The position numbers were made by a program, and so were the translations under genes. A stretch of DNA of 64,000 nucleotides from a virus, in the IMG/VR virus record IMGVR_UViG_3300047552_001147, positions 30,507-94,506 of that record; one strand, given 5' to 3'. The notes under the pieces are model-generated. The model saw only the letters and a program-made list of their open reading frames with translations, had not been told where the DNA came from and made no database searches. Shown piece after piece: positions 4,839-63,570 of the stretch; positions within the stretch are counted from its first letter, which is position 1, and every line of letters begins with the position of its first letter.

Positions 4839-4864
4839 CTATGTCTCCTTGTAGATGTGAGAAA

Positions 4865-4895
4865 ACTCATGGAGCAGTATTCCTACTCCATGAGT
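4865..4895 (-). terminator. terminator-like hairpin ending the 4916-10069 cluster
   Basis: Minus strand ACTCATGGAGTAG-GAATA-CTGCTCCATGAGT, 13-bp stem with one G-U, followed by a short T run. Confidence 0.6.
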
Positions 4896-4903
4896 CTTAT
4901 GCC
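4894..4903 (-). promoter_or_regulatory. putative phage promoter motif GGCATAAGAC
   Basis: One of 4 intergenic copies heading leftward units. Confidence 0.7.
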
Positions 4904-4915
4904 ACTTCAAGGGAG

Positions 4916-10115: not shown

Positions 10116-10144
10116 TTGTCTTATGCCTCAATTCGGATCATAAT
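10116..10144 (+). promoter_or_regulatory. sigma70-like promoter for the RNAP operon
   Basis: TTGTCT-17nt-CATAAT, 7 nt before ATG 10152. Confidence 0.5.
10118..10127 (-). promoter_or_regulatory. putative phage promoter motif GGCATAAGAC
   Basis: Intergenic copy at a divergent junction. Confidence 0.7.
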
Positions 10145-10489: not shown

Positions 10490-13400
10490 ATGCTAGATCA
10501 TCAAAAATCCTTCGAGTCTGCGATTGTTCTTGCCGAGAAGATCGTCAAAGAAGCCTTCCCGATTGTCGGCAAACACCACACGGTTCAGGCCAGCAACTTC
10601 CGCTGGCAGGGTGTTGGGTCATCTGTATCATACGACATTGCCGCCCAAAAGAAAGCCAAGCTAGAAGACAAGTCGCTTCTCGCTACCCTCCTGGCCGATG
10701 TCCAGGTAGTTGACAAGACCGGCAAAGTGCTGGATCAGCGAGACGGCCACATCGTCCTCCAGATCCCACACATCACCTCTAGAGCTTCGTACATCCTGCA
10801 AGGGACGGAGCGCCAGGTCATCAACCAGCTTAGATTGCGCCCAGGTATTTACGCCGACTTCACGCCGGACAACAACATCAAGGTGCGCATCAACACGTCA
10901 GCCGCAGGCACCTACGCTGTCCTTCTGGACAGAGAGAGCCTGATAATGACGTTTAGGGTTGGCACCTCGACCAACTTCCCAATCATCTCAGTTTTGAAGG
11001 TATTGGGCCTGAACGAGGTTGAGATCCGCCAGCTGCTGGGAGACAAGATCTTCGCGGTAAACCAGAAGAAGTCTAAGCCTGATATGGATGCGCTGAAGCT
11101 GATCAAGAAGCTCCGCCCATACCACGCCACAGCCAACGTAGACGACGCTAAGAAGATGGTCGTTGACTTCCTGGCATCAAAGCCGCTGGACCCGGAAGTT
11201 AACAAGGTAACGATTGGCAAGCCGATTGATAAGGTGGACCAGTCAGCAGTTGTTGAGTGTGTGCGCAAGGCAATTTCTCTTGCCACTGGTGCCTCTGAGC
11301 CGGATGACGTCGAATCGTTAGCGTTCAAGTCGATCCTATCATTTGACGACTTCGTGGCCGAGAGACTGCTAAAGGCCATCCCCGATATCAAGCGTAAGGT
11401 TGCGTCACTGGTTGATAGAAAGCCGCAGGTGCTGTTTGCCTTGCCGCCGTCAATGTTCACAGACACTATTGACAACTTCTTCAACAAGTCTGAGTTCACG
11501 CGACACGCTGACCAGAACAACCCGATTGACATTGCCGCCGTCAACTCCCTTGTCACTACGATGGGTGAGGGCGGTATCAAGAGCACGTACGCGGTGACTG
11601 ACGAGGTCCGCACGATTCACCCGTCGCACTTAGGTATCCTCGACGTGGCGCACACCTCAGAAGGTGGCAACATCGGTATTACCAACCACCTGTCGCTGGG
11701 AGCGAAGAAGATTGGCAGTGCTTTGGGCATGTCTGTCTATGACGCCCGCACAGGTAAAAGAGAAGACCACACAATCCAGGCGCTCGTTAACAAGACCATC
11801 GCATACCCGGACCAGTATGATAACCTTGGCAAGGGGATCCCGAAGCCCAGGGGTAAGGAGATCAAGGTAAGGGCTGGCAGCTCTTTCAAGGTCGTGTCTC
11901 CTAAAGAGGTAGACTACGTTTTTACGACGCCCGACTCCTTCTTCTCGTCAACAACCTCCGCTATCCCCTTCCTGCCGAACAACCACGTTAACCGCGTGTT
12001 GATGGGTGATAAGCACATTGAGCAGGCAGTTAATCTGACGAACCCCGATAAGCCGTTGGTCATGCACGAGATGACCAGTGGCCCGGATGCCCCTAAGAAG
12101 ATCTCGGCGGGCTACGAAGAGCTGTTCGGTCAGATGTTCAACATCAAGTCACCGGTCAAGGGCAAGGTCACGAAGGTGACTGCCGACGCTATCTACATCA
12201 AGCCTACAACAGGCAAGGCGGTTCCGGTAGCTATCCACAATAACTACCCGCTGAACTCGCACACGTTCTTCCACGACACGCCCAGCGTTAAGGTCGGCGA
12301 TCGCGTCAAAGAGGGTCAACCGCTGGCTGAGAGTAACTTCACCAAGGACAATGTCCTGGCTCTCGGTAAGAACCTGAGAGTAGCGTATACCGCATACAAG
12401 GGGTATAACTTCGAGGACGGTGTTGTTATCTCCGAAGCGGCTGCTCAAAAGCTCACATCTACCCACAAGCACGAGTACCGTGTTGACGTAGATAAGAACA
12501 CTAAGACTGGCGCAGACATCTTCTTTGCCGCCTTCCCGCAAGACCTTAAGTACCTGCGCGAGCTGAAAGAGCGCTACGACTCTGACGGTATCATCAAGAA
12601 GGGCATCAAGGTAGAGCCCGGCGATATCCTTATCCCGGCGTTCCAACAGATCCCGCTGCACGCGGAGTTCGACTACAAGAGACTCGGTAAGAAGCTCGGT
12701 GATAGAGCTATCGACATCTCTCAGCGGTGGGACGGCCTAGGTCCCGCTGAAGTTATTGACGTTGTCAAGTCCAGATCGTTCATCAAGGTCTTCCTAAAGT
12801 CGGAAGAGCCTATGAAGATCGGCGACAAGATCAGTATGCGTCACGGCGGTAAGGGTATCATTACCCACATCGTCCCAGACGATCAGATGTACAAGGACGA
12901 GTCGGGCAACATCGTTGACGTGCTTTTGAACCCTCTCGGTGTGCCTAGCCGTGTCAACACTGGCCAGCTGTTTGAGACAGCGGCAGGTAAGCTAGCACAG
13001 AAGACCGGTAAGCCGTACTATACGAAGAACTTCAACGAGACGCACGGCAATACCCTAGGGAAGCTGAAGAGCGACCTCGCTGCTGCCGGTGTTAAGGATG
13101 CTGAGACCCTAACTGATCCTGTGACTGGTCGCAAGCTGCCCGAGACCCTCGTAGGCATCACGCATATCTACAAGCTTAAGCATCAGGTTGACACGAAGTT
13201 CAAGGCTCGTGGCGCAACTGATGAGAGCTTCACTCTTGATGAGCAGCCGGCAAAAACTGACGAATCGTCCGCACAACGTATCGGTATGCTCGACACGTTC
13301 TCGCTGCTCTCCGGCGATGCAACGCACTTCCTGAACGACGCCTACGGTATCAAGTCACAGAAGAACGACGAGTATTGGGTTGCCCTGCAACGCGGGGTCA

Positions 13401-16400
13401 TGCCTCCGCCTCCAAAGGTACCGTTCATTACAGAACGCTTCGTGACGATGTTGCTTGGTGCGGGAATCAACCTTCGCCAGGAAGGTAGCAAGCTAACCGC
13501 TGCCCCGCTCACCGACAGTCAGATCAAGAACATGTCGCACGGTGAGATCGATAAGCCGCTAGTGGTTAAGTCTACCAACCTGATGCCTGAGAAGGGCGGG
13601 CTCTTTGACCCCGTCAAGACTGGCGGTATCGGCGGTAACCGGTTCAATCACATTGAACTTGTGACACCTATCCCTAACCCGTTGATGCTGGACGCGATCA
13701 CGTCCGTCGCACGTCTTCCAAAGACTGATATCCTTACACAGATCATTGATGGTAACCTCGCTGTCAATGATCAAGGTGAGGTTGTTAAGGACTTGAACGA
13801 CGGAGCCAGCTTCGGTAACGGCGTGATCAATCTACTCAAGAACATTGACGTTGAGAAGGAGATCACACGCACACAGGCGGAGATCAAGACGTCTAAGGCG
13901 GATAAGCTCAACGCAGCATATCGCCGACTCAAGTATCTGCGTGCTTTGAAAGAGCTTAAGCTAAAGCCGGTAGATGCCTACACAAACAAGTTCGTTCCGA
14001 TCATTCCGGCGAAGTTCAGAAATGTTCAGCCAAGAACTGACGGGTCGCTAAACGTGGCTGATGCAAACTTCGGCTATCGCGAAGTGATCATGATCAACAA
14101 CCAGCTGAAGAAGCTGTCGACTGCCGGAATCTCGCAAGATAACCTCAAGACGCTGAACCGTGACCTGTTCCGGGCCGTGTCTGGTATTACTGGTGTGACT
14201 GCCCCTCTAACGAGAGCGGCGGACGTTTCCGGCTTCATTGAGAAAATCAAAGGACCTAGCCCGAAGATGGGCTTCTTCCAGTCTAGAGTACTAACCAGAG
14301 CGCAAGATCTGTCAGCGCGTTCTACAGTTATCCCTAACCCCAAGCTTGGGCTGGACGAGATCGGTCTACCGTCTGAGATGGCGCTAACGATCTACAAGCC
14401 CTTTGTTGTGAAGCGTCTAGTTGGTCTTGGATATGATCCGCTACGCGCCAGAGATATGGTTGAGAAGCGAGACGAGCTCGCAATCCGCGCGCTGCAGTCG
14501 GAGATCGAAGATCGTCCGGCGATCATGAACAGAGCGCCGTCTCTGCATAAGTTCAACCTACAAGCATTTAAGCCGCGTCTAATTGAAGGTAGAGCGGTAG
14601 AAGTCAACCCGCTGATCGTTGCGGGATACAACATGGACTTCGACGGCGATACAGCTGGTATCCACGTCCCCGTGTCTGAGGATGCGCGCAAAGAGGCCTG
14701 GGATAAGTTGATGCCTAGCCGCAACCTGTTTGCTACTAGAGAGGACTCGGTTATTCACGCCCCCTCAAGAGAAACGGTTCACGGCCTGTATCTGATGACA
14801 ACGCCCAAGGGCACGCCCGTACCTGTGAAGTCGGTCAAAGAACTGATGGACATGTACAAGGACGGGAAGATCGAGGTAAACGCAGCGGTCACTGTTGGCG
14901 GTCAAGTGCAATGTGCTGGGCAGTACTTAGTTGATGCGCTAATACCGGATCAAATCAAGCTCGGCCCTGTACAGATCACATCGAAGAACCTCAAGGATCT
15001 TCTGATCAGTGTTGCTAAGACACAAGAGTCTAACAAGGCTGGCGAGATCATCTCCAAACTGAAAGACCTTGGTAACCACTACGTCACGCACGTCGGCTTC
15101 TCGATTTCACTCAACGACCTGGAGATTGATAGAGGTCTACGCGACGACATCATGACCAAGGCTAAGCAGCGCATCAAGGAAGTCGGCTTCAATACCGCTG
15201 CCAACGAGGCGTCTAAAGGTGTCAAGGATCTGGTCAGTAAGACCAAAGACAACCGGTTCGTAGAGGTTTCGGTAACATCCGGCGCCCTAGGAAAGCTCGA
15301 CTCTCTCGCACAGATGGTCGGGTCGCCAGTCGCTGTTGAGGACCACAAAGGCCGCGTCGTTCCCATGCTGATCGAGAAGTCGTATGCAGAAGGACACGAC
15401 CTAGGATCGTATTTGGCAACAGCCCCCGGTGCTCGTAAAGGCCTGGTAGATAAGGGCTTATCGGTAGGTGAGACAGGTTACTTCAACAAGAAGCTTGTGA
15501 ACACCACGATCGAGTATAAGATTGTCTCGCCTGATTGTAAGACAACGATCGGCATCGATATGCCGCTTTCATCGAGTGATATCTACGATAGGTTTGTGGC
15601 CGCCGGTCCTTACCGCAATAAGCAGTTGACTCCCGAGTTCGTAAGACAGCTAACAGCGAAGGGGAAGACGAAGATTCTTGTTCGTTCCCCAATGACATGT
15701 GCCGCAATCGGTGGCCTGTGTCAGAAGTGCTTCGGCCTCGACTCCAGCGGAAAGCTTCCGCCGATTGGATCACATATCGGAGCTCTCGCTGGCCAGACGC
15801 TAGGAGAACGTGCAACGCAAACAACGCTGAAAGCCTTCCACACCGGCGGTACTATCGGCGGACCTAAGCTAGGATTTGATCGCATCTCCGAGATCGTGGA
15901 GATGCCTGAAACGATTAAGAACAAAGCCACGCTGGCATCTGTTTCTGGAGCAGTCAGTAAAATAGAAGAAACGCCAACAGGCGGTTGGTTCGTTTATGTG
16001 AAGGACACCAAGCACTTCGTTCCGAAAGAACTCGGATTAGGGGTTAAGCTGCGACAAGTAGTTAAGGCTGGCGATAAGCTTAGCCAAGGAGGCACAATCA
16101 AGCCTCAAGAGCTACTTGAATACACAGGCAGCATTAACACTGTCCGCAATTATCTAGTGAACGAGCTGGCGCAAAGCTACAGCAAAGAGCAAGGTGCTTA
16201 CATCAAACGAAAGCTACTAGAAACTGTTGTTCGTCCATTAACTGACAAGGCCCAGGTAACAGATGCTGGCGGGGCACTCAACAAGTTCAACGTGTATCCT
16301 GGAGATGTTCTCTCTGTCAACCTGATTAAGGACTACAATAAGCAGCTGAGAGTTTCCAAGCAACCAGAGATCAAGTTCGAGCCGATGCTGCTTGGAATCA

Positions 16401-16579
16401 ATAACGCACCTTATCACAGCCAGGACTTCATTGGTCCGCTATCTCACGAGCGGTTGAAGCAGACGATCGTGCGGGCACCGCAGTTCGGCATGTCAACCGA
16501 CATCGAGAAGGGTCACCCGATGGCCCAGCTGGCCCTGAAGAACCTAAGAGACATCGAAAGTACCAGAGCTAGAACGTGA
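10490..16579 (+). CDS. rpoBC: fused beta-beta' DNA-directed RNA polymerase (phage-encoded)
   Basis: beta motifs DQNNP, GYNFEDG, GDKISMRHGGKG, NPLGVPSR, KLKHQV; beta' motifs NRAPSLH, NMDFDGD, GARKGL, GERATQ..LKAFHTGG, all in one frame. Confidence 0.95.
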   Translation: MLDHQKSFESAIVLAEKIVKEAFPIVGKHHTVQASNFRWQGVGSSVSYDIAAQKKAKLEDKSLLATLLADVQVVDKTGKVLDQRDGHIVLQIPHITSRASYILQGTERQVINQLRLRPGIYADFTPDNNIKVRINTSAAGTYAVLLDRESLIMTFRVGTSTNFPIISVLKVLGLNEVEIRQLLGDKIFAVNQKKSKPDMDALKLIKKLRPYHATANVDDAKKMVVDFLASKPLDPEVNKVTIGKPIDKVDQSAVVECVRKAISLATGASEPDDVESLAFKSILSFDDFVAERLLKAIPDIKRKVASLVDRKPQVLFALPPSMFTDTIDNFFNKSEFTRHADQNNPIDIAAVNSLVTTMGEGGIKSTYAVTDEVRTIHPSHLGILDVAHTSEGGNIGITNHLSLGAKKIGSALGMSVYDARTGKREDHTIQALVNKTIAYPDQYDNLGKGIPKPRGKEIKVRAGSSFKVVSPKEVDYVFTTPDSFFSSTTSAIPFLPNNHVNRVLMGDKHIEQAVNLTNPDKPLVMHEMTSGPDAPKKISAGYEELFGQMFNIKSPVKGKVTKVTADAIYIKPTTGKAVPVAIHNNYPLNSHTFFHDTPSVKVGDRVKEGQPLAESNFTKDNVLALGKNLRVAYTAYKGYNFEDGVVISEAAAQKLTSTHKHEYRVDVDKNTKTGADIFFAAFPQDLKYLRELKERYDSDGIIKKGIKVEPGDILIPAFQQIPLHAEFDYKRLGKKLGDRAIDISQRWDGLGPAEVIDVVKSRSFIKVFLKSEEPMKIGDKISMRHGGKGIITHIVPDDQMYKDESGNIVDVLLNPLGVPSRVNTGQLFETAAGKLAQKTGKPYYTKNFNETHGNTLGKLKSDLAAAGVKDAETLTDPVTGRKLPETLVGITHIYKLKHQVDTKFKARGATDESFTLDEQPAKTDESSAQRIGMLDTFSLLSGDATHFLNDAYGIKSQKNDEYWVALQRGVMPPPPKVPFITERFVTMLLGAGINLRQEGSKLTAAPLTDSQIKNMSHGEIDKPLVVKSTNLMPEKGGLFDPVKTGGIGGNRFNHIELVTPIPNPLMLDAITSVARLPKTDILTQIIDGNLAVNDQGEVVKDLNDGASFGNGVINLLKNIDVEKEITRTQAEIKTSKADKLNAAYRRLKYLRALKELKLKPVDAYTNKFVPIIPAKFRNVQPRTDGSLNVADANFGYREVIMINNQLKKLSTAGISQDNLKTLNRDLFRAVSGITGVTAPLTRAADVSGFIEKIKGPSPKMGFFQSRVLTRAQDLSARSTVIPNPKLGLDEIGLPSEMALTIYKPFVVKRLVGLGYDPLRARDMVEKRDELAIRALQSEIEDRPAIMNRAPSLHKFNLQAFKPRLIEGRAVEVNPLIVAGYNMDFDGDTAGIHVPVSEDARKEAWDKLMPSRNLFATREDSVIHAPSRETVHGLYLMTTPKGTPVPVKSVKELMDMYKDGKIEVNAAVTVGGQVQCAGQYLVDALIPDQIKLGPVQITSKNLKDLLISVAKTQESNKAGEIISKLKDLGNHYVTHVGFSISLNDLEIDRGLRDDIMTKAKQRIKEVGFNTAANEASKGVKDLVSKTKDNRFVEVSVTSGALGKLDSLAQMVGSPVAVEDHKGRVVPMLIEKSYAEGHDLGSYLATAPGARKGLVDKGLSVGETGYFNKKLVNTTIEYKIVSPDCKTTIGIDMPLSSSDIYDRFVAAGPYRNKQLTPEFVRQLTAKGKTKILVRSPMTCAAIGGLCQKCFGLDSSGKLPPIGSHIGALAGQTLGERATQTTLKAFHTGGTIGGPKLGFDRISEIVEMPETIKNKATLASVSGAVSKIEETPTGGWFVYVKDTKHFVPKELGLGVKLRQVVKAGDKLSQGGTIKPQELLEYTGSINTVRNYLVNELAQSYSKEQGAYIKRKLLETVVRPLTDKAQVTDAGGALNKFNVYPGDVLSVNLIKDYNKQLRVSKQPEIKFEPMLLGINNAPYHSQDFIGPLSHERLKQTIVRAPQFGMSTDIEKGHPMAQLALKNLRDIESTRART

Positions 16580-17754
16580 GAAGTGTTCACGACACCGCCA
16601 AAGGACGCTCTCCGGAGACGTCACTAACAACTGGAACAGTAGAGCAGTGTCTTCCGAGTAAGAAGGTCTACAAGGTTCTAGTAGACAACGATACGATCCG
16701 CTACTGCCGGTTGGTCTATACCGGAGTACAGACGGCGCTCAAGCAGGGAGACCGCGTTGTCATAATCAAGTGCGGATCAGCGGATTGGCTGATCTTGGGA
16801 ATGATTGACCCTGTTCCCGGACCGTCCGAGCCGTTCATTAACATCGACCTTGACGAGCAGTTCGCGGCAGATAGGGAAGAGTTCCTGTCAGGAAATCAGG
16901 TTGGGAACGACCCTGACTTCCGCCCAGTAGATAAGTTGGGACAGAAGGAGCCGCCGATCATGCCGGGTGACGCGCAGCTAGAGAACAGGTCCAAGACCTT
17001 CATTGGCCGTTCGCTCGTCCGCGTCTACTCCTTCGGCGACATCTTTGTGAAGGCCAGCGACATCTGCTTCACATACTACAACAAGAACAAGAACTGGATC
17101 TTGCAACGCGGTATGGGTCTTCTTCGAAGAACGTACGGCTACTCGGAAACGATCATAACGTCGATAGCCGGTCCGCTCAAAGGCAAGACGACTGTTACCG
17201 AGACGATCACCTTTGATCCAAAAACACTGGCACCGGATATATCGGTATCCGCCGGCGTCTCGTTACCTGAAACACCCGGCACCCTGCTAGAGGCCAGCCA
17301 GACAACTGCAGGATATCGTGCCGTCCACAAGGACGTGCTAGCTGTTGAGGTGGATCACAGTACCAAGACGCTTCGAGCATCAATGGCTGTTGGCGCCTCC
17401 AATATTGATCTCCAGGCTGGTACGTTCTTGAAAGAGAATGCTGGCACGTTCACAGACCCTGTGGTGATCGATACCGCTGTCGTCGCAAACGGCCTGCATC
17501 TTCGCCTTGGCGGCGGGTATGACATCGTCTATGACGAGCAAACGAACACGCTCGCTATCACAGGCATAAGCTCCAGAAACCAGGTTAAGCTGTCAGATCA
17601 GGCTTTATCCTTGGTGCGTGGAGAGCAGTCCTTAGTACTCTCGGACGATGGCCTGTCAGGAACTGTCCGGAATTTCCGGATGGTTGTCGAGGGCGAAAGT
17701 ATCGAGACCGCTGGCACGAAGTCCATCCAGGCCACAACGATCAGGCTGAACTAA
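16576..17754 (+). CDS. baseplate central spike protein (gp5/gpV/VgrG-like)
   Basis: N-terminal OB-fold-like GTV...GDRVVI...ILG; beta-repeat C-terminus; directly precedes PAAR. Confidence 0.65.
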   Translation: MRSVHDTAKGRSPETSLTTGTVEQCLPSKKVYKVLVDNDTIRYCRLVYTGVQTALKQGDRVVIIKCGSADWLILGMIDPVPGPSEPFINIDLDEQFAADREEFLSGNQVGNDPDFRPVDKLGQKEPPIMPGDAQLENRSKTFIGRSLVRVYSFGDIFVKASDICFTYYNKNKNWILQRGMGLLRRTYGYSETIITSIAGPLKGKTTVTETITFDPKTLAPDISVSAGVSLPETPGTLLEASQTTAGYRAVHKDVLAVEVDHSTKTLRASMAVGASNIDLQAGTFLKENAGTFTDPVVIDTAVVANGLHLRLGGGYDIVYDEQTNTLAITGISSRNQVKLSDQALSLVRGEQSLVLSDDGLSGTVRNFRMVVEGESIETAGTKSIQATTIRLN

Positions 17755-18047
17755 TGAATCTATCAAAAGTAGGCGATATCGGCGAGGGTGTCTGCCCTAA
17801 CCACAAATCCGCCCAGGCGTATACCACTGTTTTTCAGACAGGCGCCCCGTCAGTGCTGATTAACGGCCAACCCGCTGCTACCGTCGAAACAGTGGGTATT
17901 GCGACCTGCGGACACCCAACAGTGGCCCTAACAGGCAGCGCAACCGTGTTTATTGAGGGGAAACCGGCCCACCGAGTGGGGGACACTGGGGCGAACTACG
18001 GACCATATACGGCGGTATCTGGCTCTGGGAACGTTATACTTGGTTGA
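17754..18047 (+). CDS. PAAR spike-tip protein
   Basis: VLINGQPAATV, VFIEGKPAHRVGD, GSGNVILG. Confidence 0.9.
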   Translation: MNLSKVGDIGEGVCPNHKSAQAYTTVFQTGAPSVLINGQPAATVETVGIATCGHPTVALTGSATVFIEGKPAHRVGDTGANYGPYTAVSGSGNVILG

Positions 18048-18427: not shown

Positions 18428-20116
18428 ATGAGTACTCACTTTAATGGCGAGCCGCTGTTCTTTGAGAAGGCCCCGATTGTTAAGCTGGCCCGCACTAAGC
18501 TAGGGGATGATCCGAAGCAGTGGGAGTCCGACATCCTGGAAGTCCTTCACCAGCAGCACCCATACATGCTGGACACCAACATCAGCATCAACATGAAGAA
18601 AGTTGATGCGGAGAGCGGTACAGGTATCGGCGCTATCGTGCTCGACGGTAAGATCAACGTTCCCATCGTCATTCATAACTACAGAATGGCGCCGCTGGAC
18701 GTCTTCCTTAACGACACAGAAGTGGTCCCGCTAACTCGTGAGAGAATCGAGCGGGCCATGAAGACGCTGGCCATTGGTAAGCCGGTAACCCCGTCCAAGG
18801 GCGAGGCGACCGATAGTTCTATCACGCACATGACTACCCCGCCTTATGACGGGAAGTACACGTTCGCTAGCAACCTATCGTACACCAAAGCCGAGTTCGC
18901 TTCGGCAATCAACCACACATTCAATGAGACCGGCTTCGTCCTCGATATCGCCAACAACGATCTCTGGAAAGAGGCCCTGAACTCTTACCTGACAAGTGCT
19001 CTAGAACAAGAAAAGACCGCACAGACCGGTCCAAAGTACTTCCTTGAAGAAAAAGCTCCGTTCCAGCACCAGCTTACAAAAGAGGCTGGCATTTATTCCG
19101 TACCGACTAGTAAGGGCGACAAAGTTGGCGTTCTCGTTCCTATCACAGAAAAGCTGGCAAGCTCTACAGATCGCTGGCTGTTTGTTTCCCTAGACGGTGG
19201 ATACATTCCGCTGGCTGATCCAACGATCCCGTTCAAACCGGTAGAACACGTAAAAGTTGCTAGAAAAGAACCCGTCAGCGGCTCCGGAATCTTCGTAGCC
19301 AATAACGGTAAGCTGCAAGCAACTGAGATATTCGATGTCATCTGCAAGCTCGGCTCTGGCGACGTTCTTCTCAAGGACATCCATGGGCGGGAATGCCGGA
19401 TGGTCAAGTCCGCTAATGTGGACCGCATTCAGATGGGCGGAGGCCTCCTAGTCGTGCCGGAGAACTATATGTTCCTGCCGACGACGGAGCGCCTGAGCCT
19501 GACGCACGTTAAGGTAGCAAACCTGCTTGAGGATGGTTCTGACCGCATCACGGTTAGAAACCAAAACTCTCGTTTGCTATTCAGCAGTGGCAAGCTTTGG
19601 GAGTTCGGTGATCTGCTGTCTAAAGAGGGCAGCTATCCTGATGAAGTTCTGAACGCGCTGTCACCTTATTTTGATGACCAATCTTTGCAACTGTTGCTGA
19701 CGATTCCAACCGGCCAGCAACGTACGTTTACAGTTAAGACCGCCGGCATTGATAAGACAGCTTCAGCTGATGTAGCCGTTCCGGTTATCAGTCGCGAATC
19801 GATCGCGGCTATTAACCAGGCAGCCGCTGTTATCGATCGCAAGGCCGCTGGCTTCCTTAAGATCGCCGCCAATGAGGCGAGCGAAACTGTAGACACACTG
19901 CTAGGCCTCAACTTCCTCAACAAGTCCAATCTTCACAAATTCGTGGAGAACATGGACAAGGTTGGCGAAGCACGCCAAATCGTGGGACAGCTTCTCATAG
20001 CCTCCCGCCTTGGCCTGGATGTGGATGACGCTCCGCTACGGACGGCGTTCTTCGCTCTAGATGAAGTTGAACAGGACCTTCAGCAGCTGTATAACGTTAC
20101 TACCGTTAACAACTAG
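18428..20116 (+). CDS. K-x-A-rich putative inner head/core protein
   Basis: Long ORF; about 11 K-x-A motifs. Confidence 0.6.
   Translation: MSTHFNGEPLFFEKAPIVKLARTKLGDDPKQWESDILEVLHQQHPYMLDTNISINMKKVDAESGTGIGAIVLDGKINVPIVIHNYRMAPLDVFLNDTEVVPLTRERIERAMKTLAIGKPVTPSKGEATDSSITHMTTPPYDGKYTFASNLSYTKAEFASAINHTFNETGFVLDIANNDLWKEALNSYLTSALEQEKTAQTGPKYFLEEKAPFQHQLTKEAGIYSVPTSKGDKVGVLVPITEKLASSTDRWLFVSLDGGYIPLADPTIPFKPVEHVKVARKEPVSGSGIFVANNGKLQATEIFDVICKLGSGDVLLKDIHGRECRMVKSANVDRIQMGGGLLVVPENYMFLPTTERLSLTHVKVANLLEDGSDRITVRNQNSRLLFSSGKLWEFGDLLSKEGSYPDEVLNALSPYFDDQSLQLLLTIPTGQQRTFTVKTAGIDKTASADVAVPVISRESIAAINQAAAVIDRKAAGFLKIAANEASETVDTLLGLNFLNKSNLHKFVENMDKVGEARQIVGQLLIASRLGLDVDDAPLRTAFFALDEVEQDLQQLYNVTTVNN
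20067..20095 (+). promoter_or_regulatory. sigma70-like promoter upstream of packaging genes
   Basis: TTGAAC-17nt-TATAAC. Confidence 0.45.
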
Positions 20117-20136: not shown

Positions 20137-21183
20137 ATGGGCCACTCTAGGCCCCAAATTGCTAAAGAGTTCCGCATCAATGAGCGGACACTCTGTTGGC
20201 TAGAACAGACTGGTCGGCTCCATCTTGAGTGGAAGCCGTTAAACGGCCTGCTAACTTGTGAGCTAGACGACGACGCTCGTCGAGTGCTCGCTTGTGCTGC
20301 CGTGTCTGTTACAGCGCTGGATAACGTCCTGCCTTTCCAGCGGTTCCTCATTCTCAGAACGCTCCAGCTTCCTGCCGACGAGCAGTACCAGGAGCTGCTA
20401 GACCGCAACATCTTTGCGCCAGCTGGCTTTAGCTTAGAAGCTATCACCGCTATCAGAGAGCAGATAATTGATCGGCTTCCGCTGGTTGTGCGCCGATTTG
20501 TGAAGACTAATCGCCCGCCAGAGACAGACGAAGAGCGGCAATGGCTAGACGGTGTGCTGGATGCGTGTGAGGTTCACCTCGCGTACCACCACCCAGACCT
20601 AGAGCAATCGTTCCAGTTCATGCCGAATCCGGAGTACAAGGAAGCGGTGGATTGCGCGGTTAGCACCAAATCGAGCTACGCAGACATTCAGAAATTCTTG
20701 ATTGATGTGCTAGGATTGCGGGTATCTGTGGAGGGAATCGCCTTCTATCAGCAGCTCTTCCACGACATCAACATCGTGTCGACAGACAATCTGCGGATGT
20801 ACCTAAAGAAGGTCAAGCCTTCTCTCAGATCGCGCATGGCTCTTGCTGTTAGCAGCTCGATTGATACCTTCAGAGTCAAGAGCGGCATCGACGACAAGTT
20901 TGAAGTCGACAAGGTCATGTCCGTCTTCAAGGACGACCTGATCAACGATCTGCTCAAGATGCTGAACAATAAAGCGCCAGAATCTGAGAAGGCATTCAAC
21001 AACACGCTGCGAAGTCTGGTTATTGTTTTGGACCGCATGGACCGGATCAAAAGCGCAAACACCAAGTCTGGCAACGGCGTCCCTCAGTTCTTCAAGACAA
21101 TCAAAGTCTCAGCCCAACCATCTAACGAGATGAAGATCTTCCAGCTACCATCTCCTGTTAAGGACAGCGCACAGTCACAATGA
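20137..21183 (+). CDS. hypothetical protein, candidate terminase small subunit
   Basis: ATGA-coupled to TerL; helical; function inferred from position only. Confidence 0.4.
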   Translation: MGHSRPQIAKEFRINERTLCWLEQTGRLHLEWKPLNGLLTCELDDDARRVLACAAVSVTALDNVLPFQRFLILRTLQLPADEQYQELLDRNIFAPAGFSLEAITAIREQIIDRLPLVVRRFVKTNRPPETDEERQWLDGVLDACEVHLAYHHPDLEQSFQFMPNPEYKEAVDCAVSTKSSYADIQKFLIDVLGLRVSVEGIAFYQQLFHDINIVSTDNLRMYLKKVKPSLRSRMALAVSSSIDTFRVKSGIDDKFEVDKVMSVFKDDLINDLLKMLNNKAPESEKAFNNTLRSLVIVLDRMDRIKSANTKSGNGVPQFFKTIKVSAQPSNEMKIFQLPSPVKDSAQSQ

Positions 21184-23000
21184 CTAGCTTTGGTGTGTCG
21201 CAAGTAATGCCGGTTGTTGATCTAATTGAACAACTGGCCGCAGCCGAAAACAGCGGAGAGATTGATGCAGACCGCTTCAACTGGGCAAAGTACAATGAGG
21301 CTGCCGAGAGGCTAGCCGAAGAGCTGTCTGAAGAGGCGCAGAAGAACCAACAGGACGCGCTAGACAACCTGACACCAGAGTCGGTAGCGCTTACGACATT
21401 GTCCGGTATTGTTGCCGGACTACTTACGGTAGATCAGCTGGCGTTCTCTTTCGAGGGCCGCGACTATATTCGTGGGCTATATGACCTTGTTGAGGAGTAC
21501 CCGGTCGGATGCCGTAATCAGATATGGCAGGCTGGACGTCAGGTAGAGAAGTCAACGACCCAATCGGCCAAGTCTATCGCGCTGGGGATAGCGTACCCGA
21601 CATACAAGACGCTCTACATCGCGCCTAGATTCGACCAGGTCACTGTGTTCTCACAGCAGCGCTTCAAGCCCATGTGCGAGGATTCAAAAGACATTGTCGG
21701 TCGCTGGATAGATCAGCACAGAATGCTGTGGCAGGTTGGTGCTAAGCAGTTTATGAACGGATCGTTCTTTAACTTCCGCTCCTGCTACTTGAATGCCGAC
21801 GGCGCTCGTGGTATTTCAGCTCACCATCTAATGATCGACGAGATCCAAGACGTTGTCTCAGATGCCGTACCTATTCTTGAACAAACCCAGTCGCACGCCT
21901 CCAAGGAACTGAAGTTCAACACGTACGCCGGCACTCCAAAGACCAACAGTAACGTCATCACACGACGATTCAAGAACAGTTGTCAGTTCGAGTGGCTGAT
22001 TAAGTGCGACCACTGCAACCACTGGAACTTCCCGGATGACAATATTGTCGGGGAGACGTTCTTCATGTGCGTCAGATGCTCTCGGGACATTCGTCCAGCT
22101 AACGGACAATGGGTTCCTGCGAGACCAGAGCTTCTAGACAAGTGCTGGGGATTCCGGCTACCACAGCTGATCGTACCATTCAAGACGCACGCGGATATCC
22201 TTGCAACCAAGCACGACCCGCAGGTATCACGTCGCCAATACTTCAACGAGTGTCTTGGGCTGTCATATGACGAGGGCGAGCTCGTTCTGGTTGAGCGCGA
22301 CCTTATCGAGGCTTGCGCCGCCGGTGATGGTCAACCTATGTGGGCGCCGTCTAGGGCGCACTCCATGACCATCCCCAAGTTTATGGGCGTGGACTACGGA
22401 ACTGCGGAAGGCGAGAAGCCGTCGTGGAGCGTGATAACCGTTGGCTTCATGAATGCTATGGGCCAATTCCAGGTCATCTTCATGGAGAAACTGGTAGGCG
22501 AGAAAGCCAACCTATCTAAGCAGCCGGAATACATCAACAAGGTTGCCCGATCGTTCGGTGTGACCTGGATGGGTACAGACTGGGGATTCGGCGCACCGCT
22601 GAACCAGAGACTGGTCGATGAATTTGACTGGCCGCGATATGAGGGTCGACGTATCTTGATGGAAATGCAGTACGTCAAGCAGAAGCTTAAGGCCCAGTGG
22701 AACCCACAGGCCCAGCGGTACATGATCGACCGTAACCAGTCGATGACCGACTTCATTGACCGCATCCGAACTAAAAAAGTGGTCTTCTTCCACTATGACC
22801 AGTTCAAACACTTCACAAGCGATTTCACGTCGATCTTCATTGAATTTGACCCTGACCATGGGACGATGAAGTACGATCACGATCTGCCGGACGACGCCTT
22901 CCACTCTGCCAACTACGCGTACATGACAGCGCTGCAGTATTACGGCCAGCTGGTCAACACATCACTGCCAGATACGAACGGGTTCGAAGAGCCGTTGTAA
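21180..23000 (+). CDS. terL: terminase large subunit (lambda gpA-like)
   Basis: Walker A GRQVEKST, Walker B LMIDE, AGTPK, Zn finger CDHC...CVRC, nuclease motifs MGVDYG and DDAFHS. Confidence 0.9.
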   Translation: MTSFGVSQVMPVVDLIEQLAAAENSGEIDADRFNWAKYNEAAERLAEELSEEAQKNQQDALDNLTPESVALTTLSGIVAGLLTVDQLAFSFEGRDYIRGLYDLVEEYPVGCRNQIWQAGRQVEKSTTQSAKSIALGIAYPTYKTLYIAPRFDQVTVFSQQRFKPMCEDSKDIVGRWIDQHRMLWQVGAKQFMNGSFFNFRSCYLNADGARGISAHHLMIDEIQDVVSDAVPILEQTQSHASKELKFNTYAGTPKTNSNVITRRFKNSCQFEWLIKCDHCNHWNFPDDNIVGETFFMCVRCSRDIRPANGQWVPARPELLDKCWGFRLPQLIVPFKTHADILATKHDPQVSRRQYFNECLGLSYDEGELVLVERDLIEACAAGDGQPMWAPSRAHSMTIPKFMGVDYGTAEGEKPSWSVITVGFMNAMGQFQVIFMEKLVGEKANLSKQPEYINKVARSFGVTWMGTDWGFGAPLNQRLVDEFDWPRYEGRRILMEMQYVKQKLKAQWNPQAQRYMIDRNQSMTDFIDRIRTKKVVFFHYDQFKHFTSDFTSIFIEFDPDHGTMKYDHDLPDDAFHSANYAYMTALQYYGQLVNTSLPDTNGFEEPL

Positions 23001-23778: not shown

Positions 23779-25224
23779 CTACAATCCGCTCCGCACGCGG
23801 TCACGGATCTCCGCGTACGTCTGCTCGTTGTGGAGCTGGCCGTTCGAGAACACCTTGCGGAACGCGCAGCTTGTCACGTCAGTCTTCTTCGCGTTCTGCT
23901 TCAACGTGAAACGACCGTTCTGATCGTGATAGACGGCCAAGAGGCCCTTGGCGGACTTCTTGGTACCGTTATCAGTCACAGGATTCTTGAAGATCTCACG
24001 CGCCTCATTGCCGACTTCGACGTAGGTGGCCTTCATCGCCCAACCGAGAGTGTCTCTCGTGTTGTACTGGTAGGTGTAGCTACCGATTCCGGCCACCCAG
24101 TTGGTCGACGCGAACCCCTGCTGCATCAGTCGCTCGCAGATAGCCGCCGCCAGCTCTCTGGTGATAGAGTCACCGTAGATCAGGCCGATGTGGGGATCGA
24201 GGACCTTGAATCCCTTGCTGTTCGTAGTGCCTCCGAAGAGTTCCCACAGCAGCTGGATTGAGCCCTTCTTCTCCACTTCGGTTTCCCCGTCAGGATCGCC
24301 ACAGATGATCTCCAGAGGAGTCTTCTTGGAGCTGTCTGGACGGATGACGACCTTGCCCGCACGGGCCATGATCTCCGACTTGAGCGTCGGAAGGATCTCG
24401 GTCAAAACCTTCCAGTAGTCCCAGGTGTCCGAGACGATGGACACGATCCCCTTGGGGTACAGATCGAGGATGCGGCGGAACGTGTCCACCTCAGACTCTC
24501 TCGTACCTGCACACATGACACTGTGTTCCGTCGCCGGAACAGAGAATCCTGTGATCCCTCTCGGAGCATGGTAGTACTTCGAGAGGAATGAGGTGGCCGG
24601 AACAGTGTCAGAGCCGTCGAAGGACAGGAGATGTCCCGCCCCGCTGGTCTTGGCCGTTTCGAGCGAGCTCATTCCACGGAAACTGAAGTCGTGCCCCTGG
24701 AAGTTGACGGACGCAGCTTCATCAGAGGTCATGTCAGCGTATCTGGTGAAGATCTGCCGATAGTGTCTTGCGATGGTTGCTGATGTGCACGGCTGCCAGA
24801 TCGTAGCCGACATGATGGTTTCCAGGTAGTTGACCAACCAGAAAGCATCAGGTACCGTGTTCATCATGACAAGCGAGGGAACGCCGGCAGGAACCACCGA
24901 ACCTTCCGGCAACGCCCAGATCTCGATCGGCAGGCCTGAGTGTCTTCCCAGCAGCCGGAGGTGATAGTCGTTCGGTCTTACCCCGAGAGCTGCCTCCATC
25001 ATATCCGCAAAATCGCCGATGTTCATTCGCTCCAAGAACGGGACCAGGTACTCCTTCAGGAAGTACTGCAGTCCGAAGAACACCACCGCTTCCTCGCCGG
25101 TAGGGTCCTTGATGCGACACTTCCGGGGAGTAAAGTTGGAGAACACCAACTTGGTGCCATCCGGGTATTGCCGACGGTGGTCGGCCTTGTACCAGTCAAT
25201 CAGATTCAGTGAGTTGTCAGTCAC
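23779..25224 (-). CDS. nadV: nicotinamide phosphoribosyltransferase-family enzyme (likely NARP1 Namat)
   Basis: DWYKADH, HDFSFRG, PATEHSVM, SIVSDTWD, VIRPDS, IYGDSIT, KKSAKG; GTG start at 25224 directly after the Prs-like stop. Confidence 0.9.
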   Translation of the reverse strand: MTDNSLNLIDWYKADHRRQYPDGTKLVFSNFTPRKCRIKDPTGEEAVVFFGLQYFLKEYLVPFLERMNIGDFADMMEAALGVRPNDYHLRLLGRHSGLPIEIWALPEGSVVPAGVPSLVMMNTVPDAFWLVNYLETIMSATIWQPCTSATIARHYRQIFTRYADMTSDEAASVNFQGHDFSFRGMSSLETAKTSGAGHLLSFDGSDTVPATSFLSKYYHAPRGITGFSVPATEHSVMCAGTRESEVDTFRRILDLYPKGIVSIVSDTWDYWKVLTEILPTLKSEIMARAGKVVIRPDSSKKTPLEIICGDPDGETEVEKKGSIQLLWELFGGTTNSKGFKVLDPHIGLIYGDSITRELAAAICERLMQQGFASTNWVAGIGSYTYQYNTRDTLGWAMKATYVEVGNEAREIFKNPVTDNGTKKSAKGLLAVYHDQNGRFTLKQNAKKTDVTSCAFRKVFSNGQLHNEQTYAEIRDRVRSGL

Positions 25225-25225
25225 G

Positions 25226-28453: not shown

Positions 28454-28661
28454 TGTAGTCCTTCTGCTCAAGTTTTACGGATAGCTGCTCAATCGACGAT
28501 TTGATCAGCGCGTCGTACTCGTGAAAAAACGCTTGGTGAAGGGCCAGTGCCAGCGCCGCTTGTGACGGCACTGGCTGACCAGCCTTCTTCAATCTTCTTA
28601 TGACCTTTTTCGCGCAATCTATTGCGTTGTGGCCAGGCCGCTGGTTCTTGCGTTTTACCAT
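28443..28661 (-). CDS. hypothetical protein
   Basis: Overlapping cluster ORF. Confidence 0.55.
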   Translation of the reverse strand: MVKRKNQRPGHNAIDCAKKVIRRLKKAGQPVPSQAALALALHQAFFHEYDALIKSSIEQLSVKLEQKDYNDY

Positions 28662-31859: not shown

Positions 31860-31869
31860 GTCTTATGCC
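31860..31869 (-). promoter_or_regulatory. putative phage promoter motif GGCATAAGAC
   Basis: Intergenic copy at a divergent junction. Confidence 0.7.
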
Positions 31870-46691: not shown

Positions 46692-47398
46692 GTCATCTCA
46701 TTTGGATGGCAGATCTCTCTAAGACCATAGATTCGCTGCCGCAATAAGGCGTTAAGGTGTACATTCTGTACTTCACTCTTAAACGGAGCACTCCTTTTCA
46801 GGATATACAACGCTGGCCGATATTCTCCGAACGCTTCCTTGTAACGGATGATCCGTCGTTCCACATCATCAAGCAAGAAGAAACCGGCGGACAGGATGAC
46901 TATCTTACACTGAATCCTATCGATTCTCAGTGCGTGAATAGGTTGTTGCTGTACAGGTAGGTTGAAGAGATCGTCACGAGCGTTATCGACATCGTGGGAT
47001 GTGAAGACATGCCCGAGCTCTTTACTGTACGCATCCAGGACCTGCTTTACTAAGCCAGTGAGAGGCTTACGGAATTCCCTGAACAGGAAGATGATCGCCG
47101 AGTTACTAGACGCAAGTGAGTGCACCCCTGAATTTCGGCGGCGCATGAGATTCATCACATTGAGATACTGGTACCGGTTGCTCGCCGGTTCTCCGCCGTA
47201 TGCCTCAGCCATCACCTCGTTTCTTGCATGAATGTATTCTAGGCCGCGATCCCGCTGCTGAAGAAATTCGCTGCGCGTTCTATTAGACTCCTGCAACACC
47301 TGCGAGAAGATGTAGTTGTGTTCGGAGGAGGATTGAATCAGTTGGCCAATCTCTTCGAGAGTGCTGTGTAGTTCCTGGTAAGGGGCGTGTTCAGTCAT
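46673..47398 (-). CDS. hypothetical protein downstream of the sigma factor
   Basis: Overlaps the sigma stop; last gene of the unit. Confidence 0.7.
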   Translation of the reverse strand: MTEHAPYQELHSTLEEIGQLIQSSSEHNYIFSQVLQESNRTRSEFLQQRDRGLEYIHARNEVMAEAYGGEPASNRYQYLNVMNLMRRRNSGVHSLASSNSAIIFLFREFRKPLTGLVKQVLDAYSKELGHVFTSHDVDNARDDLFNLPVQQQPIHALRIDRIQCKIVILSAGFFLLDDVERRIIRYKEAFGEYRPALYILKRSAPFKSEVQNVHLNALLRQRIYGLREICHPNEMTKNQGQ

Positions 47399-48224
47399 TG
47401 TGATCCGCTAACAGCGGTTCATTTTTCAAGGCTACCCACAGTTTTCGTAGCCCGTCATTCTCTAGTTGCCTAATTCGCTCACGAGTGAATCTGTAGAACT
47501 GTGCGAGATCATCGTATGTTTCTGTGTCTTGGTAGCCAAGACCGTAGTGTCTACGAATGATGTCTTCCAGCTCTGGTGGCAATTTGGCTAGCGCCTCGGA
47601 CAGCTTCTGAGATGTTTCATTCTCAAGCATCTCATCGAATACCGCCCTATCTTCGTCGATGATTAACGGATCGTTCTTCAGCTGCCCCATTTCTGACGCA
47701 GTCTCGATGTTCTCAAGCGGAATGATCTGCCGCTCAGAATCTTCAAGATACTGGATGATGGTAGTATCGTCCCACTCCAGCGCAATGAACACTTCTTCCT
47801 GAGAAGGCCGCTGACCGTTCTGCAAATGAAGCTGCTTGGCCATGGCCCGGTACTTAGTATGCAGTACCTTGTGCTGGTGGATCTTCGGCTGGATCGCGTG
47901 AAGCTCCTTACGGATCCTTGCTTGAATCCACCACACAGCGTAAGTAGAGAACCGGTTCTTCTTCGATACCTTGAAGTCGTCGATGGCTTTCATTAGACCA
48001 AGTGTCCCTGCGGACACCAGGTCCATCGCCTTTGCATCGTTAGAGTCAACGAACCTCAAGACGCAGCTCAGCACTAGCCGCATGTTGTGAGTGATGAACA
48101 GGTCTCTTGCGGCGATATCTCCTTTCTTGATCTTACGGAGAAGCTTGCGCTCCTCCTTAGCGTCAAAGTGGGAGAACGTTCTGAACTGATTATAGTACGC
48201 CTGAAATTCGGACTCTTGTTTCAT
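47391..48224 (-). CDS. sigma70-family RNA polymerase sigma factor
   Basis: Region 1.2/2.1 EERKL...ARDLFITHNMRLV; 2.2-2.4 GLMKAIDDF...RFSTYAVWWI; 4.2 TRERIRQLE. Confidence 0.92.
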   Translation of the reverse strand: MKQESEFQAYYNQFRTFSHFDAKEERKLLRKIKKGDIAARDLFITHNMRLVLSCVLRFVDSNDAKAMDLVSAGTLGLMKAIDDFKVSKKNRFSTYAVWWIQARIRKELHAIQPKIHQHKVLHTKYRAMAKQLHLQNGQRPSQEEVFIALEWDDTTIIQYLEDSERQIIPLENIETASEMGQLKNDPLIIDEDRAVFDEMLENETSQKLSEALAKLPPELEDIIRRHYGLGYQDTETYDDLAQFYRFTRERIRQLENDGLRKLWVALKNEPLLADHND

Positions 48225-63560: not shown

Positions 63561-63570
63561 GTCTTATGAC
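63561..63570 (-). promoter_or_regulatory. putative phage promoter motif GTCATAAGAC
   Basis: Intergenic copy heading the replication operon. Confidence 0.7.

Follow-up and report, generated by a model that had tools for sequence, protein, structure and literature searches.

A trimmed, single-chain beta-beta' RNA polymerase encoded by an uncultured freshwater tailed phage

In an uncultured freshwater tailed phage, one gene specifies the whole catalytic core of a two-barrel RNA polymerase (RNAP) of the bacterial type, with beta joined head-to-tail to beta' (Table 1; "the window" below refers to the whole 64,000-nucleotide stretch of DNA that was analysed). The sequence-only reading had proposed a single-chain, trimmed beta-beta' RNAP in a tailed phage, with the beta blocks followed by the beta' blocks in one 2029-aa frame, and the open reading frame, the order of the Pfam domains and the data discussed below support it. 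The gene belongs to a very large phage family whose fused form has apparently not been described previously; we found no description of it in the literature. The reading that best accounts for the data, and that we consider probable, is that of an alpha/omega-free, sigma-dependent and probably virion-delivered phage RNAP.

Table 1. Features of the fused RNAP gene, its neighbourhood and the putative promoter motifs (coordinates refer to the window).
Feature	Coordinates	Strand	Basis or remark
Small ORF, 111 aa	10152..10487	+	Ends 2 nt upstream of the RNAP start codon
Fused beta-beta' RNAP gene (P0001)	10490..16579	+	Single ORF, 2029 aa, no internal stop (ORF listing and translation)
Beta module, aa 1-995, up to the conserved beta C-terminus	10490..13474	+	Pfam Rpb2_3, Rpb2_6; alignment; AF2; Foldseek
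Rifampicin-pocket cluster I equivalent (E. coli beta 505-537)	11477..11575	+	Alignment and numbering check
Beta/beta' junction RQEGSK	13475..13492	+	aa 996-1001; modelled as a tight hairpin turn
Beta' module, aa 1002-2029	13493..16576	+	Pfam Rpb1_1, _2, _3, _5; alignment; AF2; Foldseek
Short Gly-rich loop in place of the beta' zinc-binding domain	13610..13648	+	Alignment, deletion table
Catalytic Mg-binding motif NMDFDGD	14630..14650	+	aa 1381-1387; script check
Second beta' zinc site, four Cys kept (aa 1683, 1737, 1744, 1747)	15536..15730	+	Invariant alignment columns
392-aa ORF	16576..17754	+	Overlaps the RNAP stop codon (GTGA)
PAAR-domain protein (tail-spike tip)	17754..18047	+	PF05488 1.4e-10, phrog_281; overlaps the 392-aa ORF (TAATG)
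Terminase large subunit (TerL)	21180..23000	+	Same rightward block; phrog_675 1.8e-69, PF05876
Sigma70-family factor, 277 aa, regions 2 and 4	47391..48224	-	PF04542 5.5e-14, PF04545 6.9e-9, phrog_351 2e-41
Promoter-like motif GGCATAAGA	4895..4903	-	Upstream of a leftward gene
Promoter-like motif GGCATAAGA	10119..10127	-	Divergent gap beside the RNAP operon, towards the leftward genes
Promoter-like motif GTCATAAGA	28596..28604	-	
Promoter-like motif GGCATAAGA	31861..31869	-	42 nt ahead of an RBS and ATG on the minus strand
Promoter-like motif GTCATAAGA	63562..63570	-	Precedes the leftward primase/DNA polymerase block

The protein matches six Pfam RNAP domains, with E-values that reach 2e-58: Rpb2 domains 3 and 6 at aa 340-921 are followed by Rpb1 domains 1, 2, 3 and 5 at aa 1007-1927. 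In the beta part, PF00562 (the double-psi barrel with its sandwich-barrel insert) is matched at 2e-58 and PF04565 at 2.4e-10, while Rpb2 domains 1, 2 and 7 fall under the Pfam threshold in this 2029-aa family member. Solved bacterial beta' chains in the PDB match the phage protein at 1e-96. The AF2 model of the beta module (pLDDT 86, pTM 0.80) has bacterial beta chains as its top Foldseek matches (TM ~0.77), and the model of aa 830-2029 (pLDDT 88.8, pTM 0.85) likewise retrieves bacterial beta' chains (TM 0.74-0.78). The catalytic motif lies exactly where the sequence-only reading had placed it, and its residues D, D, G and D are invariant in 80 homologues. That reading also noted NMDFDGD as a replacement of NADFDGD. 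The replacement is present here, but it is a trait of the subclade and not of the family, M being typical of the nearest ~20 homologues and A, G or L occupying the second position in more distant ones. The clamp helices, the bridge region and the trigger loop (FHTGG) are kept, the GARKG and FHTGG blocks aligning with E. coli and S. aureus; the alignment of the beta module shows that the flap tip is kept in part. The cysteines of the second zinc site align with E. coli C814, C888, C895 and C898.

The junction had been expected near 13475, and a script check of the motif positions puts GAGINL at aa 990-995 (nt 13457-13474), just before RQEGSK, in agreement with that expectation. Alignment against the E. 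coli and S. aureus enzymes indicates that the last conserved residues of beta pass directly into approximately residue 19 of beta', such that there is no real linker, and the AF2 model shows the junction as a confident beta-hairpin (pLDDT ~94). The description of the enzyme as minimised is fair given its 2029 aa, compared with 2749 aa for the two E. coli subunits together and ~2220-2390 aa for the shortest of the bacterial pairs sampled. The alignment shows no counterpart of the beta' zinc-binding domain (E. coli 67-93, including Cys70, 72, 85 and 88), and the Gly-rich loop that takes its place is also present in the consensus of 80 family members, which shows that the loss is family-wide. Lineage-specific inserts are likewise absent from the aligned phage protein. 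The C-terminal omega-contact motif is mostly gone, and the beta' segment that aligns with E. coli 1346-1354 is deleted. In cluster I of the rifampicin pocket, E. coli Q513, F514, H526, R529 and S531 correspond to R, H, V, L and T in the phage protein, while D516 is unchanged. These are established rifampicin-resistance positions, and the substitutions suggest that the phage enzyme is probably insensitive to rifampicin.

In principle, a single long frame could stem from a bacterial rpoB-rpoC operon that was acquired recently or is decaying, or could look like a fusion only because of an assembly error or a frameshift. In bacteria, rpoB and rpoC are adjacent, natural fusions are found in Helicobacter and Wolbachia, and bacterial rpoBC contamination is present in phage databases. 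However, the identity to any bacterial enzyme is only 25-28%, and intact homologues (32-83% identity), in which the catalytic residues do not vary, number in the hundreds. In the trees, the family is a single clade with a long stem that joins neither Bacillota nor Proteobacteria and branches at the base of the sampled bacteria, where the order is not resolved. Grouping with Bacillota is also disfavoured by an AU test (p 0.022), and the family does not nest within any sampled bacterial rpoBC clade, the outcome that would have spoken against the sequence-only reading. Clustering of near full-length homologues at 50% identity leaves at least 150 clusters; the 150 top-scoring representatives all have E < 1e-150, and in almost all of them ~1000 residues of beta precede the beta' part. 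At least 490 IMG/VR stretches match, and the beta/beta' junction is unsplit in all 95 related IMG/VR loci. Two seeming stand-alone beta' proteins were set aside, one being interrupted by a TGA and the other probably cut at a contig end. Single contigs cover the region in two runs of what is probably the source sample, and an independent contig of 151 bases, which comes from another sample in another study, is identical over 13461-13611. The fusion is not an artefact, and the surrounding genes (TerL, a putative major head protein, PAAR and family A DNA polymerase) place the gene in a phage. Collectively, these data make a bacterial capture or an artefact highly improbable, and this explanation is effectively refuted.

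The RNAP gene is part of a translationally coupled block with the spike-tip (PAAR) and packaging genes, and its synteny with TerL is found in at least 26 related loci. Neither the 111-aa nor the 392-aa ORF beside it has a family match in Pfam or PHROG. A homologue of the 111-aa ORF lies directly upstream of RNAP in 10 of 97 related loci, all of them in the closest subclade, and a homologue of the 392-aa ORF lies directly downstream in nine related loci. For the capsid, the window gave only a weak match, to phrog_2522 "major head protein" (6e-9, PHROG); the marker of the mReC phages (see below) is the T4 gp23-type PF07068/VOG11186. The closest cultured relatives are Salmonella phage Arash (gp206 and gp216) and Vibrio phages D69, D148 and D181, with genomes of 181-188 kb. 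Their RNAPs show 28-31% identity over most of the length and fall inside the same clade (LG+G4 tree). As in the phage studied here, the beta/beta' junction is fused, a small ORF lies just upstream and a sigma factor is present without alpha or omega; the 111-aa ORF and Arash gp205, which occupies the same position, show no similarity. In contrast to the single chain here, beta' in these phages is cut at approximately residue 1470 (numbering of the 2029-aa protein), and its C-terminal third is encoded by a separate gene 1-5 kb away. Database records label these proteins merely as beta/beta' subunits or hypothetical proteins. The accessible text of the Arash paper names beta and beta' subunits without remark on a fusion (PMC10585845).

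Profile searches with PF01000, PF01193, PF03118 and PF01192 gave no match to alpha or omega in the whole 94.5-kb record (~49% complete), nor did PF01000 and PF01192 in the records of a complete 193-kb relative (with terminal repeats), Arash and D69. The same searches gave matches in 14 of 14 control genomes. The absence noted earlier for the window holds, at Pfam-profile sensitivity, for the record and for three complete relatives as well. Cellular-type RNAPs are thought to require an alpha dimer for the assembly of beta and beta'. The phage enzyme would work without phage-encoded alpha or omega, the covalent link probably filling the assembly role of the alpha dimer. A divergent or unrelated assembly subunit could exist, one candidate being the product of the small upstream ORF.

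The sequence-only reading had overlooked the sigma70-family gene of the window, together with the family-wide loss of the beta' zinc-binding domain and the cultured relatives with their link to virions. Both Pfam matches of the sigma70-family factor exceed the curated cut-offs, and its motifs YAVWWI and TRERIRQ (melting and -35-reading, respectively) are conserved in two relatives. One or two sigma genes are found in the records of four of five relatives, the fifth record being a 32% fragment. The extended -10-like motif GKCATAAGA occurs five times in the window, always on the minus strand, compared with 0.83 expected. The record as a whole contains 16 CATAAGA sites, of which 11 fall in the ~6% of the DNA that is intergenic; 10 of these 11 precede a minus-strand start by 10-60 nt. 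An extended form of the motif is also present in a relative with 69% RNAP identity, while a more distant, high-GC relative (G001) lacks it. No conserved -35 element was seen, though sigma region 4.2 is well conserved. Host sigma70 presumably needs a T at position -7. The motif has a G at this position, which argues for a dedicated holoenzyme. GKCATAAGA would represent one promoter class of the phage enzyme, preceding the leftward replication and small-gene units, and the phage's own sigma70-family factor would direct the enzyme to phage promoters; the motif may instead serve a different polymerase or sigma.

In an alternative scenario, the phage sigma would redirect the host RNAP in the manner of T4 gp55 or SPO1 gp28, and the single-chain enzyme would use another specificity factor or none. 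Phage sigmas that reprogram host RNAP are common, jumbo phages without an RNAP of their own all have sigma factors (PMC7824862), phiKZ-type RNAPs rely on a non-sigma fifth subunit, and the beta' zinc-binding domain is missing in the phage enzyme. Yet sigma genes accompany the fused RNAP in the relatives' records as given above, the enzyme keeps its clamp helices and a part of the flap tip, and Arash sigma gp10 was detected in particles alongside RNAP (PMC10585845), which together make a sigma dedicated to the host enzyme improbable. As to delivery, the same source reports that Arash gp206 gave the most spectra (3516) in sucrose-gradient-purified particles, where gp216 and gp10 were also detected (PMC10585845). 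The position in the late block and the abundance of Arash RNAP and sigma in purified virions suggest that the enzyme is most likely a late product that is packaged and enters the cell together with the DNA. The delivered enzyme would then start transcription independently of the host polymerase. Carry-over is, however, raised as an alternative by the authors of the Arash study, whose preparation yielded 116 "particle" proteins, ribonucleotide reductases and ligases among them (PMC10585845).

These non-structural enzymes are compatible with a different model, in which the fused core is genuine but not self-sufficient and recruits the host alpha dimer (possibly also omega) as a middle or late, non-virion enzyme, the Arash signal being carry-over of an abundant late protein. 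Host alpha could be borrowed because the conserved regions of beta and beta' are largely kept, and an engineered E. coli beta-beta' fusion assembles with alpha. The family's hosts and sources comprise Salmonella, Vibrio, and freshwater and sediment metagenomes, with a GC content of 49-63%; hosts this diverse, together with the low identity to bacterial enzymes, make it less likely that a conserved fit exists to the alpha of each host. Moreover, a place among late structural genes is odd for an enzyme needed before late transcription, the complete relative has a single RNAP gene only, and phiKZ- and AR9-type phage RNAPs work without alpha (PMC7598289). We therefore regard recruitment of host alpha as unlikely and retain the alpha/omega-free, sigma-dependent and probably virion-delivered enzyme. 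A bolder version of this preferred reading is tentative and somewhat doubtful. It states that the whole family has a self-sufficient alpha/omega-free single-chain core in which the link replaces the alpha platform, that the enzyme is packaged and injected with its own sigma, so that these phages (~190 kb) would not depend on host RNAP from the first minute onwards, and that the lineage split off before the radiation of the sampled bacterial phyla. If true, no smaller natural RNAP of the cellular type that depends on sigma would be known.

How does the enzyme compare with other known systems? The natural RpoBC fusions of Helicobacter and Wolbachia and the engineered E. coli fusions share the joining of the beta end to the beta' start, which are adjacent in the enzyme. 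These cellular enzymes are of full size and continue to rely on alpha and omega, whereas the phage enzyme is ~25% smaller and lacks the beta' zinc-binding domain as well as alpha/omega genes. The multisubunit-RNAP-encoding Caudovirales (mReC) are uncultured tailed phages, some with genomes >200 kb [Weinheimer & Aylward 2020, PMC7481178]. Their RNAP has a compact beta (~1000 aa) and beta' (~900-1000 aa), is alignable to cellular RNAP and was reported as deep-branching, and some mReC come from the same metagenomes as relatives of the phage studied here (PMC7481178). The mReC entries seen there list two separate proteins, sometimes two sets per contig, in contrast to the single ORF here, and as far as the main text goes a fusion is mentioned for crAssphage only (PMC7481178). 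In this layout the fused family differs from the published descriptions of mReC, with which it may share ancestry, as the sequence-only reading had suggested; our own trees show its separation from the sampled bacteria. The phiKZ and AR9 RNAPs are also phage-encoded two-barrel enzymes without alpha or omega, one set being virion-packaged (PMC7598289, PMC7824862). However, their beta and beta' are each divided into two to three polypeptides, are far more divergent and occur in two sets without a sigma70-type factor, while the phage studied here has a single chain, with one gene per genome (as judged from the complete relative), and a sigma70-family factor. The crAss-like phage RNAP and YonO likewise carry both catalytic barrels on a single polypeptide, and the crAss-like RNAP is virion-associated (as cited in PMC7481178). 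They show no detectable similarity to the COG0085/COG0086 models (PMC7481178), in contrast to the Pfam and beta' matches of the phage protein given above.

A widespread natural one-chain-plus-sigma enzyme with clear homology to the bacterial core would provide a minimal system for sigma-dependent initiation, and a compact, orthogonal transcription module that is probably rifampicin-insensitive. It would also test the limits of core trimming, since the zinc-binding domain, the omega site and the lineage inserts are all gone. With Arash and the Vibrio phages in culture, these proposals are already open to experiment. Finally, pipelines that seek separate beta and beta' proteins may have overlooked a major group of RNAP-encoding phages, which affects the published picture of "deep-branching" phage RNAPs.

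The β and β′ parts of the phage RNA polymerase (RNAP) reside in one polypeptide. ORF listing and translation give a single uninterrupted frame. In its product, Pfam recognizes two Rpb2 domains (3 and 6) across aa 340-921, followed by four Rpb1 domains (1, 2, 3, and 5) across aa 1007-1927. The closest solved structures are bacterial β′ chains (e.g., B. subtilis, 1e-96). In an alignment with the E. coli and S. aureus subunits, the C-terminal conserved block of β joins β′ directly, entering at approximately E. coli residue 19. A script check put both the junction peptide and the NMDFDGD motif exactly where the sequence-only reading had located them. AlphaFold gives pLDDT 86 and pTM 0.80 for aa 1-1000, and pLDDT 88.8 and pTM 0.85 for aa 830-2029, with the junction modeled as a hairpin (pLDDT ~94); superposition of the RNAP models on bacterial β and β′ yields TM 0.74-0.78.

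The family formed by this protein and its phage homologues is large. In a word-indexed search, homologues of 2000-2150 aa, 32-83% identical and lying on contigs of up to ~200 kb, made up more than 120 clusters at 90% identity. An exhaustive HMMER search with the β′ half as query recovered representatives of at least 150 clusters defined at 50% identity; each scored below E 1e-150, and in nearly all the match began at approximately residue 1000. At least 490 stretches in IMG/VR match. In a census of 95 loci, the whole core is one ORF in ~60; another ~17 are of the type seen in Salmonella phage Arash, in which ORF 1 comprises β plus the first ~470 β′ residues and the remaining β′ is a separate gene; and six have a single frame broken only by in-frame TGA. 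A split at the β/β′ junction occurs in none of the 95, and the fusion is the hallmark of the family. Collectively, the single frame, the Pfam domains, and the family-wide fusion bear out the proposal of a single-chain bacterial-type RNAP, which is real, intact, and strongly conserved. The NMDFDGD variant of the catalytic motif, also singled out from the sequence, is present but is a trait of a subclade only, other members having A, G, or L there. Longer family members (2350-3760 aa) carry inteins, recognized by Pfam LAGLIDADG and intein-splicing domains; examples are L006:9959-17137, L012:9992-18850, L165:3465-14753, and the proteins P0021 and P0024. One recurrent intein site is adjacent to or within NxDFDGD, such that P0021 and P0024 read NMDFDG followed by the intein Cys; others fall at ~aa 392 in β and at ~aa 1440, 1785, and 1953 (window-protein numbering).

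Two proteins that look like stand-alone β′ subunits probably have other origins. At L104:4307-10078 (IMGVR_UViG_3300025602_000002, 205 kb; n=3) and L168:5658-11564 (n=2), TGA codons are the only interruptions of the fused RNAP frame. One TGA from each lineage, compared with the family consensus, falls at a conserved Trp (e.g., NDEY-W), and neither RNAP frame contains an in-frame TAG or TAA, which suggests that TGA encodes Trp in these two lineages. Under code 11, gene calling on such phages then yields false "split" β and β′ proteins. P0247, a candidate stand-alone β′, is such a product: its ORF is cut by in-frame TGA, and its lineage apparently decodes that codon as Trp. For a further candidate, P0092, a near-identical contig has a fused ORF whose interior it matches, so that P0092 was probably cut at a contig end.

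The relationship to cellular enzymes was addressed with concatenated β and β′ from 23 family members and 23 bacteria, together with two archaeal B subunits; the bacterial rows (from the best-scoring 80 loci) are mostly Bacillota and leave out Cyanobacteria, Bacteroidota, Thermotogota, and others. With LG+G4 on all rows and 1930 columns, the phage family, including Arash and Vibrio phage D69, forms one clade (SH-aLRT 100, stem length 1.0) and every bacterium falls in a second (99). Forcing the phages to group with a Bacillota-like set, named post hoc with the tree already seen, costs 64 log-likelihood units (p-AU 0.022). With LG+C20 (24 rows, 832 β columns), the phage clade again has support of 100, in an unresolved three-way split with a Saccharimonadota sequence and the remaining bacteria. 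The family therefore does not nest in Bacillota or Proteobacteria. It may be sister to all bacteria; long-branch warnings apply, and many phyla lie outside the sampling. The placement of Arash and D69 within the fused clade in the LG+G4 tree suggests that their extra β′ split, which lies later than the junction, is secondary; the LG+C20 mixture tree does not resolve the point. Ordinary split rpoB-rpoC pairs of compact size are present on three MAG contigs labeled actinobacterium or Pseudomonadales (L034, L077, and L091). Two of them, L077 and L091, branch close to the bacterial base, apart from E. coli, and L034 likewise falls outside the Bacillota set. The labels assigned by binning may be wrong.

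The enzyme has been trimmed at several positions (see table). Inserts SI1, SI2, and SI3 of E. coli are absent as well, as they are from Gram-positive RNAPs. The Asp triad, the second zinc site, the clamp helices (YR.VI..NN.LK.L), and the GARKG and FHTGG (trigger-loop) blocks are kept. A consensus built from 80 members of the family shows the junction and likewise lacks the zinc-binding domain. In the rifampicin pocket, E. coli Q513, F514, H526, R529, and S531 are replaced by R, H, V, L, and T, and the phage RNAP is therefore predicted to be rifampicin-insensitive.

Features of the window, and segments missing from the RNAP relative to both E. coli and S. aureus (E. coli numbering)
Feature	Position	Strand	Remark
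β-β′ RNAP	10490-16579	+	2029 aa
Junction peptide	13475-13492	+	
NMDFDGD	14630-14650	+	
PAAR spike-tip gene	17754-18047		overlapped by 392-aa ORF
562-aa ORF	18428-20116	+	no family match
Large terminase	21180-23000		downstream of PAAR gene
Nicotinamide phosphoribosyltransferase and ribose-phosphate pyrophosphokinase	23779-26086	-	side by side
Major head protein	37498-38745		weak match
σ70-family factor, 277 aa	47391-48224	-	regions 2 and 4
Replication block		leftward	primase, family A DNA polymerase, helicase, UvsX-like recombinase, exonuclease
Missing, β			first 26 residues
Missing, β lobe (part)	393-419		
Missing, β			ten residues immediately ahead of flap-tip helix
Missing, β′ zinc-binding domain	67-93		all four Cys included
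Missing, β′	309-315		seven residues; taken here as rudder tip
Missing, C-terminal conserved block of β′	1346-1354		nine residues, taken here as part of omega contact; C-terminal tail also missing
Missing, various			several short loops

The surroundings of the RNAP gene are those of a phage. The window spans bases 30507-94506 of a 94.5-kb IMG/VR virus record (CheckV completeness ~49%), and its DNA is present in freshwater metagenome runs, with no RNA run listed among them; a 20-kb part of the window, compared with phage records by megablast, gave no match. The start of the 392-aa ORF overlaps the RNAP stop codon. The 562-aa ORF is the most conserved neighbor of the RNAP: among 97 related loci, 52 have a homologue of it 1-5 kb downstream of the RNAP and in the same orientation. 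It was considered as a portal and is not called one here, since BLASTP similarity to the Arash portal is absent. For an upstream 111-aa ORF, profile iteration gave no homologues past 10 loci, and it is unlike Arash gp205. ARAGORN found no tRNA genes in window 1-64000. The two adjacent nicotinamide and ribose-phosphate enzymes are of the NAD+ salvage pair type, with which phages restore NAD.

CATAAGA is the most enriched intergenic heptamer in the record: 11 of its 16 occurrences lie within the ~6% of the record that is non-coding, and 10 of these 11 face minus-strand genes, with an RBS and start codon 10-60 nt on. In the window, GKCATAAGA occurs five times, always on the minus strand, versus 0.83 expected. 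A relative with a 69%-identical RNAP has the same motif with the longer consensus CTAAATAnGGCATAAGATATATGA (8 of 18 sites intergenic); the motif is absent from a 55%-identity relative with 63% GC. This candidate promoter resembles an extended -10 element (TGnTATAAT), except that position -12 is C and position -7 is G, departures that suggest use by a phage-specific holoenzyme. Inspection by eye revealed no consistent -35 element 17 bp upstream. CATAAGA often adjoins G+C-rich, terminator-like hairpins with T runs (e.g., window 4839-4915), also left of the window (e.g., -16085, window numbering); hairpin and promoter-like motif are packed in 60-120-bp gaps.

As the sequence-only reading had noted for the window, recognizable α and ω are lacking: α (NTD, CTD, RNA_pol_L) and ω profiles have no match in the 94.5-kb record, and the α-NTD and ω profiles likewise match nothing in the records of Arash and D69 or in a complete relative of 193 kb that has terminal repeats; 14 of 14 control genomes were positive. 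That reading overlooked the σ70-family gene in the window; sigma genes are found in the records of four of five relatives. Complex prediction for the phage sigma with β′ aa 1005-1420 returned no answer (score 0.00), which speaks neither for nor against the pairing. The complete relative has one RNAP gene only, in contrast to the two RNAP sets of phiKZ-type phages.

A limited literature search found no published description of a fused β-β′ phage RNAP family. Compact, deep-branching β and β′ have been described in uncultured phages, the multisubunit-RNAP-encoding Caudovirales (PMC7481178). The available tables of that paper list two proteins per RNAP set, unlike the one fused chain here, and its available text mentions fusion for crAssphage only (PMC7481178). 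The Arash proteins gp206 and gp216 carry β and β′ annotations, and the Arash paper gives gp206 the highest spectra count among proteins of sucrose-gradient-purified particles (PMC10585845). Both gp216 and the sigma factor gp10 were likewise detected, in a list of 116 particle proteins for which the authors allow carry-over (PMC10585845). Our best reading is that the RNAP is free of α and ω and depends on sigma; it would be self-sufficient, with the phage sigma as its partner, and is probably packaged in the virion.
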